This document shows positions 46,701-49,700 of a DNA stretch of 64,000 bases, piece by piece. The stretch covers positions 20,336,001 through 20,400,000 of the forward strand of contig NC_043009.1 in the NCBI RefSeq assembly GCF_006345805.1, in the 5' to 3' direction. The notes under the pieces are model-generated. The model made no database searches. It was given only the letters and a program-made list of their open reading frames with translations, and had not been told where the DNA came from. The stretch is from Octopus sinensis. Its lineage: Eukaryota. Both the position numbers and the translations under genes were made by a program. Position 1 is the first letter of the stretch, and each line of letters starts with the position of its first letter.

Positions 46701-49700
46701 TTTTGTGTTACAGCTGTAATTATCTCTGAGAAAGCTGGATCATATCACAAACATTATCATTAACTAGAGTCAAGTCTTAACAGCTGTATCACATTATAAT
46801 TTTTGACAGCATAAAACAGTAAAATAATTACAAATACTTTCAGGAAAATAATTAAAATCCTGCTTCTGACGTTGGCAGAACAAAACATAGTCTTTTTTTT
46901 TTATCAAGGATGTTTTAGAATTTAAAGTTCTGAAATATTTTCAACAAGTCTGAATCAATCTTAAAATGGCTAACCTTTTCCATGCACATTTGCAATATTC
47001 CCACCCTTGATGAAACTGCTTTTCAACACAAAGCTTACAAAATGCAGGCACAGTTTTGACAATGCCTTATCTCAGTAATTTCTTTATAAATAGCTTTTGC
47101 TAAGCATCAACACTTTGCTGAGTCATTTGCTAAAAATGCAAGCATACTTTTGAGAGGTTTCATAATAAATAATGTTTTTGTTTAACACAAGAAAAAGCAA
47201 ATATCTTTCTCTAAATACTTCATCAAAAATAGGAAGATATATCCATAATTTCTGACTAAATTTATATACTAAATATTTTATTAAGTTTAAATAGATTAAA
47301 AGTAATTAAAACCTGTTTTTAACAATCATTGTGATCTGACCTTTGTTTTTCTGAATTCATTCCCAGCAAATCGTTGCCATATGTCTGACATGATTGGTGT
47401 CTTTATATTATTGGTTGTTTCCTTTTCTTTCCAGTCTTTTTGAGATTTTGCAGAGTTTATATTGGGCAGTTTATGGCCTTGTCGATCTAGAACACGCACA
47501 TTTGGACGAACCGCACAAACTGACCGAACTGATTGGCAAGCTGATGTTTGGCAGTTACAGTATGATAGCCATTATTATTCTGCTTAACTTACTTATCGCT
47601 ATGATGAGCAATTCCTACCAACTCATTTATGTAAGACTCATTCCTTTGTCTACAACATTTTCATTCTTTACACATCATTTTTTTTCATCACATTTTCATT
47701 TTCATGTTTATGATTACAATTTTACAGTTTTAATGAAATTTTACAGTTTTAATGAAATTTTCAGACGTGTGTGAACTTTTATAACTGCTGTTGCTTTAAC
47801 AATTTCTTTTAAACAGGCAAAATATCAAGTATATTTTTTTTCTTTCAGTATAGATATTTCAGAAAATAAAAAAAATGGAAAATTCTTTACCAGGCTGAAC
47901 TGTTTCAACTCCATCATTTCCAGAACTGTCCAAAATGCCAGCACTCACTAAATCCAGTCATTTGTTGCAATTTCTTTCAAGATTTACCAAGGCAGTTTAA
48001 CCATTTTTCAATTTTATACAGATTTCCAAACCTGACCATTTGGCAAATTCCTAAAAAAAACCTGCTTCTATACAACCTCTGCACCATTTCAGACCAAAAT
48101 AATTTGGCACCAAGAAACTTAATTTCTTGATTTTGTCTCTTTGACTTTAATTACAATTAGAATATAAAAATAGCTAATTAGTTACTGAGATAATTTTATG
48201 AAATATTTAAATTTTAATTTTTTAAAGAATTAATTATAAAATAGTTAGAGAAAATAATTGAGTTTATTCAGTAAGACAGATCTATCAAGTTAAAAAAAGA
48301 AAACATATACTTTCAGTAAAGCAAGGAATGAGTGAAAGTCTTTGATTCACACTTGATAAAAAATGTTATAAATACTATTATATTCACCAGTTTGAAAGTG
48401 ACATAAAGCAGAAGTCTAGAAGTCTAGTTATGATTAAATATATTTAATACATAAGATAATTATGGCTGTCTAGATTTAATGTATGAAGATAATAAATTAA
48501 TATTGGATATATCAATATAGCTGTGATGGTAGATTATTTTGCAAGCAATAAAACTTTTATTATAAATAAAGTCATCACAGATTTTTCTGAAGACATCCTA
48601 TAGTACCATATCTGGTTGGTAATTAGCATCACCTAATTAATTATTTATTTTCTGGTGATATTTGATTCTAAATAGGTATCACAACAAAATCTTATAAGCT
48701 TCATAGAAAATAAGGAATTTAATTATTTACTGGAAGTTTTCCCAAACAATATCCATGATATTCTATGGCAACCTAAATATAAAATAATTTTGTTTATATT
48801 GACCAAACCTTTTTCAATTTTCAGACTGCTAAGAGCAAATATTTAACACTGAAATCACAGAAAAAAATCAGATTGAATATTCTTAGAAATACTGAAGATT
48901 TCTGTAACTTTTTCTTTTCTTTCCAGTCTTTTTGAAATCTTGCAGAGTTTATATTGGGCTTTTTACGGCCTTATAGAATTGGACAACGCTCACTTGGACG
49001 AACCACACAAACTGACTGAGCTGGTTGGCAAACTGATGTTTGGAAGCTACAGTATGATAGCAATTATAGTATTGCTCAATCTGCTAATTGCTATGATGTC
49101 ACTATCATATCAAATGATATCTGTAAGAAAGTCTTTTACTTTCTCCTTATTGATCATAACTTATTCTGCTTCTTTTGCAGTCTTTTTGAGATCTTGCAGA
49201 GTTTATATTGGGCAATTTATGGTCTTATTGATCTGGAAGACGCCCATCTGAAAGAACCTCACCATTTCACTGAGCTTATTGGGAAATTGATGTTTGGCAG
49301 TTACAGTTTGATAGCCATAATTGTACTTCTGAACATGCTAATTGCTATGATGAGCAACTCATACCAAATAATATCTGTAAGAAATACAATTTAAGTCTGC
49401 TCTACCTAAGTTACAGCTTACTGACAGCATGAAGCTCTGACAAGACAAACTCGCCACACAGTCCAACAGTATTTTCACATGGTACACATATAAACCATGT
49501 TAATATTTGTAGTTTCTGCAGTATAGAAACTGTATTAATATTAATACAAGTAAAAGTGCATGTTAGATCTATATTCTATAGTCATACTCCATAGTTGTTT
49601 AGTTGTTAGGCCTTTAATAGAAATCCCTGTCAAATTAGTGGATAGCTGTTACAGTTCAAGACATTTCTAGTAAAGTTATTTGTTTCTTCATCAAAATAGT

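Follow-up and report, generated by a model that had tools for sequence, protein, structure and literature searches.

Octopus TRPC pore exon 7B, one of three alternative copies, places Glu at the selectivity filter and Leu beside the lower gate

The window analysed here, a stretch of 64,000 nucleotides of Octopus sinensis DNA, contains a TRPC gene in which one coding exon is present as a cassette of three tandem homologous copies, named 7A, 7B and 7C (Table 1). When read with 7B, the gene matches P0114, the RefSeq Octopus sinensis TRP-gamma-like isoform X3, and the block match to this protein makes the cassette the seventh of ten coding exons and places the gene end at about 63370. The 7A, 7C and 7B forms are the RefSeq isoforms X1, X2 and X3 (XP_036364088.1, XP_036364090.1 and XP_036364091.1, respectively), all three being predictions of automatic annotation. 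Isoform X3 departs from isoform X1 by the same ten differences that separate 7B from 7A, including D583E and N625L.

The best solved relative is a TRP-gamma chain (9vqq, E 2.4e-258), followed by TRPC4/5 (TRPC4, E 1.4e-231), and this full-length homology to solved TRPC channels is accompanied by the TRP box EWKFAR in exon 8. P0114 is also 83% identical, over 803 aa, to the trp-like protein of Loligo forbesii (CAA11261.1), which is reportedly tied to squid photoreceptor membranes (Monk et al. 1996); squid TRP transcripts occur in skin too, according to PMC4564192. By homology, the gene is an octopus TRPC channel, the counterpart of the squid photoreceptor TRP. In a search of the octopus's own genome, 14 candidates were scored and seven matched, namely 7A, 7B, 7C and four distant TRP-type pore exons. 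The latter (L004-L007, on contigs C20, C1, C16 and C7 of G000) gave one match each and have quite different filter loops.

Table 1. Positions of the TRPC gene, its cassette and the key 7B codons in the window
Feature	Position	Strand	Remarks
TRPC gene (802 aa in 10 coding exons)	28417..63370	+	Exon-by-exon match to P0114
Constitutive exon 6 (S4-S5, S5; ends in codon phase 2)	41176..41525	+	3' end joined to 7A, 7B and 7C in contigs
Alternative pore/S6 exon 7A	47435..47630	+	Filter Asp, S6 Asn; YGLVDLEH / MMSNSYQ
Alternative pore/S6 exon 7B	48927..49122	+	196 nt, spliced 6>7B>8; YGLIELDN / [13 protein letters not shown]
7B Phe codon, pore-helix end	48961..48963	+	Val in 7A, Ile in 7C; TRPC5 position 579 by alignment
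7B Glu583 codon GAA	48976..48978	+	Aligned with TRPC5 N584, TRPC3 E630, TRPC6 E687
7B Leu625 codon CTA	49102..49104	+	Aligned with TRPC5 N626 / TRPC4 N622, one residue past gate position
7B-7C intron, 58 nt	49123..49180	+	Candidate branch points 16-41 nt from donor
Alternative pore/S6 exon 7C	49181..49376	+	Filter Asp, S6 Asn; YGLIDLED / MMSNSYQ
Constitutive exon 8 (S6 end, TRP box EWKFAR)	61220..61414	+	5' end joined to 7A, 7B and 7C in contigs

All three cassette exons are 196 nt long, share one phase and AG/GT ends, and agree with each other at 152-158 of 196 nt (78-81% pairwise identity). Exon 7B, the middle copy, is bounded by an AG acceptor with a pyrimidine-rich tract and a GTAAGA donor. 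The filter and S6-end motifs that an original prediction, made from the sequence, had given for the three exons are exact. From 7A to 7B, 10 of the 65 residues are changed (V12F, V16I, D17E, E19D, H20N, I33V, I48V, N59L, L63M and Y65S), and 25 further codons carry silent differences. Among the three exons dN/dS is 0.035-0.108 (Nei-Gojobori), with dS of 1.2-2.8, which is near saturation; by these low ratios, 7B was under purifying selection for a long time.

Exon 7C carries the changes H20D, D24K, K28H and L29F, which had been read as altering the charge of the outer mouth. The residue swaps are real and redistribute charge over the outer loop; the net charge is unchanged, with residues 17-32 holding five Asp or Glu and one Lys or Arg in each of 7A, 7B and 7C. 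The 7C of the squid cluster retains Asp24 and Lys28, and D24K and K28H are absent there.

We have checked the use of the cassette in assembled contigs from runs that are not recorded as RNA and for which no tissue is given; their RNA status was guessed, and exon-exon junctions were used as the evidence. Such contigs drop rare forms and speak for presence only, neither the absence nor the level of an isoform being readable from them. In contigs over 47300-49500, exon 6 was joined to 7A in all four runs, to 7B in one (run X2) and to 7C in two, while the junction with exon 8 was found for 7A in three of the four runs, for 7B in two (runs X2 and X7) and for 7C in one. Run X10 (organism C) added a complete 6>7B>8 contig with zero differences from the window. 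The 7B junctions span studies P2, P3 and P5, with 7B>8 in all three and 6>7B in two. With exact 6>7B>8 junctions in runs X2 and X10, and 7B>8 in run X7, the earlier treatment of 7B as a genuinely spliced isoform is borne out.

For runs X1 and X8, 7A was the sole cassette exon spliced, and 7B was present inside long unspliced contigs that start at the end of 7A and run through 7C (window 47601-49500). Compared with the window, 29 nt are inserted behind 48610 in the organism A runs X1 and X2, and 19 nt are deleted at 47718 in run X1. No A>G change indicative of RNA editing was seen at the key codons in the contigs of runs X1, X2 and X7, rare variants being dropped from such contigs.

Joins between two cassette exons were seen in none of the four runs of either run set, again in contigs that drop rare forms. 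Tandem exons of equal length, common flanking exons and the lack of mutual joins in the contigs together characterize 7A, 7B and 7C as mutually exclusive exons. Each is 3n+1 nt long, and the frame to EWKFAR stays open with single inclusion only; in the frame test, skipping as well as double or triple inclusion led to an early stop. Splice sites as close as those flanking a 58-nt intron would be too near for both to be used, as in other cassettes. The 58-nt intron would thus sterically keep 7B and 7C from joint splicing, and nonsense-mediated decay would remove double inclusions that involve 7A; given the short intron and the breakage of the frame, steric exclusion combined with frameshift decay fits the arrangement. 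Docking/selector RNA pairing gave no signal, since all six pairings were matched or beaten by 6-29 of 30 shuffles, and a repeat search near the cassette returned AT-rich weak arms only.

A near-perfect inverted repeat (51841-52583) lies in the intron that follows 7C, ahead of exon 8. Its arms of about 350 nt (51841-52193 and 52230-52583) are 99-100% complementary and are separated by a 36-nt spacer. It would fold as a long pre-mRNA hairpin, and could be an editing substrate, a mobile element or an assembly artefact.

When the 7B exon is aligned to the solved chains, which requires no gap (residue 1 falls on TRPC5 568 and TRPC4 564, and residue 3 on TRPC3 616 and TRPC6 673), its Glu at residue 17 lies three positions after the filter Gly and coincides with TRPC5 N584, TRPC3 E630 and TRPC6 E687. 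These residues face the pore and set Ca2+ permeability, according to the available text of PMC7565274. The assignment of the 7B Glu to the Ca2+-filter position is therefore upheld by the ungapped alignment to TRPC3/5/6, which puts it inside the filter, not outside. In the mammalian TRPC3 and TRPC6, which belong to a different subfamily, the Glu at this Ca2+-permeability control position is native. The AlphaFold monomer is uninformative on filter geometry, because its pLDDT is below 50 at residues 582-585 of the filter loop.

The natural range of this position was surveyed in 124 distinct invertebrate pore peptides, drawn from 304 of 348 proteins (the other 44 were without the search motifs, and the set is biased towards entries with words in common with the query). 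The filter residue is Asp in 99 of them, Glu in 12, Gly in 10 and Asn in three. Glu is found there, among others, in the orthologues from Tubulanus and Lineus, in TRP of Penaeus and spiders, and in sawfly TRP-gamma. Since Glu occurs naturally at the filter in 12 of the 124 peptides, the 7B pore should still conduct. Two elements of the present picture are already known, namely 7B as a RefSeq predicted isoform and the natural occurrence of Glu at the filter site elsewhere.

The second key residue of 7B is the Leu at exon residue 59, for which the alignment gives TRPC5 N626 as the counterpart. The lower gate of TRPC5 consists of I621, N625 and Q629 (PMC7565274, PMC6656536 and PMC6079076, in their accessible parts), and the corresponding exon residues 54, 58 and 62 are Ile, Ser and Gln in all three exons. 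The Asn-to-Leu change thus adjoins the lower gate, as had been proposed, but the Leu is not one of the INQ residues and forms no part of the gate itself. In the AlphaFold monomer, Leu625 sits within the S6 helix. Residue 59 is Asn in 66 of the 124 peptides, His in 46 (as also in TRP-gamma), Ser in 10, Thr in one and Leu in one; it is hydrophobic in 7B alone, and a Leu beside the gate was found in no other invertebrate peptide of the set. An unmodelled density, possibly water, is reported between TRPC5 N625 and N626, together with a rotation of S6 on agonist binding (PMC13263324, available part), and on this account an effect of the 7B Leu on gating is plausible.

A third 7B-specific change, from Val or Ile to Phe at residue 12 at the pore-helix end, was absent from the original prediction and is found in one of the 124 peptides. 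The pore-helix Trp and the filter Gly are the same in 7B as in its sister exons. Two Mg2+ sites of related channels have been described, in sources available in part: the cytosolic Mg2+-block Asp of TRPC5, D633, and an S5-S6 Mg2+ site of TRPV6, D580. By ungapped extension to the TRP-box Trp, the position of TRPC5 D633 is occupied in all isoforms by the Ser with which exon 8 begins. TRPV6 D580 may match the position of the 7B Leu, on an alignment that we assume.

Alternative versions of this pore exon are not confined to octopus. Equal-length pairs occur among the isoforms of Mytilus (P0146/P0150), Haliotis (P0292/P0197) and Lineus (P0314/P0208), and among the entries listed, oysters, scallops, clams and pulmonate snails each showed a single version. 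In the Mytilus, Haliotis, Lineus and P0006 pairs, both versions carry one and the same filter residue (D/D or E/E), whereas the octopus set, alone among the alternative-exon sets examined, differs at this residue. One Mytilus version has Ser in place of Asn at residue 59 (S6 end MMSSSYI). The P0006 and P0182 entries, which are Logan ORFs of arthropod TRP type, contain two tandem pore/S6 exons that lie 12 codons apart, with an intron of ~35 nt. Another Logan ORF, P0012, has a mollusc-type pore exon that reads YGLIELDH, with Glu as in 7B and Asn beside the gate. In a tree of the exon peptides (30 rows by 65 columns), the cephalopod exons were grouped at 80/82, a grouping without a star. A clade of the Mytilus pair (p-AU 0.097) was not rejected, nor was a clade of 7B with P0012 (p-AU 0.152), and for this reason independent origins of the alternative exons are not demonstrated. 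Bandyopadhyay and Payne, in 2004, reportedly described one Limulus TRP mRNA variant in which a pore segment of roughly 63 aa is swapped; this would be an alternative pore module of like kind, again in a rhabdomeric TRP.

Taken together, these observations favour 7B as an either/or pore exon whose channel is likely to be conducting and Ca2+-permeable, with divalent handling and gating modestly changed, and not a new channel class; we give this reading a probability of about one half (0.52). Each step in the function of the 7B pore is one that we infer. The filter Glu would keep the negative ring while extending it by one methylene, as in TRPC3/6, and so would shift Ca2+/Mg2+ binding. On the S6 face next to the gate, a Leu where a polar residue otherwise stands would change S6 packing or wetting, and with it the open probability.

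A more drastic possibility is that the 7B pore is strongly blocked by Mg2+ in a voltage-dependent manner, as a natural copy of the fly TRP change D621E, such that splicing would toggle between an unblocked channel and one relieved by depolarisation. We regard this as unlikely, although several points speak for it. Cephalopod body fluid is high in Mg2+, which would favour block. The 7A context GLVDL resembles the fly TRP motif, and on this motif the 7B Glu may correspond to D621. Work by Liu et al. in 2007 reportedly found that the engineered Drosophila D621E channel kept its Ca2+ permeability and acquired a strong voltage-dependent Mg2+ block. Our full-text literature search for D621E gave no match, and the papers that it found with D621G contained no treatment of D621E. 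Asp621 is, in the accessible text of two papers, a determinant of Ca2+ permeability in fly TRP (PMC7565274; PMC4164786); the 7B Glu occupies the right filter site, and the octopus set is alone among the exon pairs examined in varying there.

The D621E change was engineered in another sequence context. Against such a block, Glu is native in TRPC3/6 and in the nemertean, shrimp, spider and sawfly records, so that Glu alone need not mean strong block. Ser stands at the TRPC5 D633 equivalent in all octopus isoforms, and co-assembly with 7A would probably dilute any effect. It is correspondingly doubtful that octopuses of this group switch by splicing between two pores of a rhabdomeric light-cascade TRP, one with Asp and the other with Glu, the latter being Mg2+-blocked at rest and relieved by depolarisation. 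If true, a TRPC channel would have a natural, splice-selected coincidence or gain control of NMDA-like type, and the three exons would be a three-way natural test set for the roles of filter and gate-side S6 residues in divalent block.

The history of the exon bears on a different alternative. O. sinensis, O. bimaculoides and Loligo share one 7A peptide without any difference, and 7B is, of the three exons, the copy that has been lost in relatives. In organism B, 7B is broken: it lacks one base at 48952 and has a stop in place of Tyr at 49050 (one contig, depth 52, one run). Octopus bimaculoides has only 7A and 7C isoforms among the entries listed. The squid TRP (Loligo forbesii CAA11261.1) has the exact 7A peptide, with Asp and Asn where octopus 7B has Glu and Leu. 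In P0001, P0178, P0179 and P0008, whose 7C is equal or similar to that of the squid-cluster P0121, a decayed exon lies just upstream of 7C. It ends in MVTLSCQ or MVTLIS, with the Leu retained and the filter codon outside the visible part, and is equally close by identity (17/39) to 7A, 7B and 7C. By its position and its Leu, the decayed copy looks like 7B, these squid-like records then having 7C together with 7B as a decayed copy only; if this is right, the Leu would be older than the octopus-squid split. Organism F, in contrast, has 7B in open frame with both Glu and Leu; compared with the window it shows two silent and two replacement differences (V33I and L52M), against one silent and no replacement difference in 7C, all of these counts being very small. 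Organism E matches the window over 48880-49196. Conservation of the Glu and Leu, which had been suggested as a check, is thus seen in organism F; in organism B the exon is broken by the frameshift and stop, and in the squid-like ORFs it looks decayed, with the Leu kept.

These losses raise the possibility that 7B is a duplicate of equivalent function, or close to neutral, on which selection is relaxed; it would still be spliced in this species group while disappearing lineage by lineage. The organism B lesions, the decayed copies upstream of 7C, the O. bimaculoides entries and the excess of replacements of 7B over 7C in organism F all point this way, as do the two 7B residues that occur in no other of the 124 peptides; the organism B break and the squid-like decay also count against the modest-change reading, since they also fit a nearly neutral exon. 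We nevertheless hold neutrality to be improbable: dN/dS against the sister exons is far below 1, the splice sites are intact and fully spliced contigs come from three studies, and the Glu, the Leu and the frame are retained in organism F, albeit with very small difference counts. Returning to 7B as a modestly altered, conducting pore exon, its isoform is most likely a lineage-restricted and dispensable fine-tuning extra beside the invariant 7A.

It is very unlikely that the 7B subunit opens poorly or is non-conducting and damps the channels into which it co-assembles. The Leu and Phe are unique among the 124 peptides, and with a possible water between the residues equivalent to TRPC5 N625 and N626 (PMC13263324, available part) the Leu could dry the gate region; however, gate residues Ile54, Ser58 and Gln62, the pore-helix Trp and the filter Gly are unaltered, and position 59 tolerates Asn, His, Ser and Thr. 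A pseudo-exon or annotation artefact in O. sinensis, which the broken copy in a relative and the confinement of 7B to unspliced contigs in runs X1 and X8 might suggest, is largely refuted by the contigs with exact 6>7B>8 (runs X2 and X10) and 7B>8 (run X7) junctions, and is at odds with the open frame and with RefSeq isoform X3.

It is unusual for alternative splicing to exchange the residue at the selectivity filter of a TRPC channel. The isoforms differ in a 65-residue segment only, and therefore constitute a natural experiment on the determinants of Ca2+ permeability, Mg2+ block and gating for this cephalopod counterpart of the squid photoreceptor TRP. That mussels, abalones, a ribbon worm and an arthropod have the exon in two versions suggests recurrent tuning of the pore by splicing in this channel group, whereas the repeated loss of 7B limits the likely importance of its isoform. 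A search of mainly openly accessible papers returned no published description of a cephalopod pore-exon cassette; the passages of two papers that it returned (PMC13483504 and PMC12240821) are unrelated to the cassette.

Elsewhere in the window, open stretches lie at 2070-2312 (+), 15729-15953 (-) and about 30900-31400. By their motifs, they resemble transposase and LINE-type remnants.
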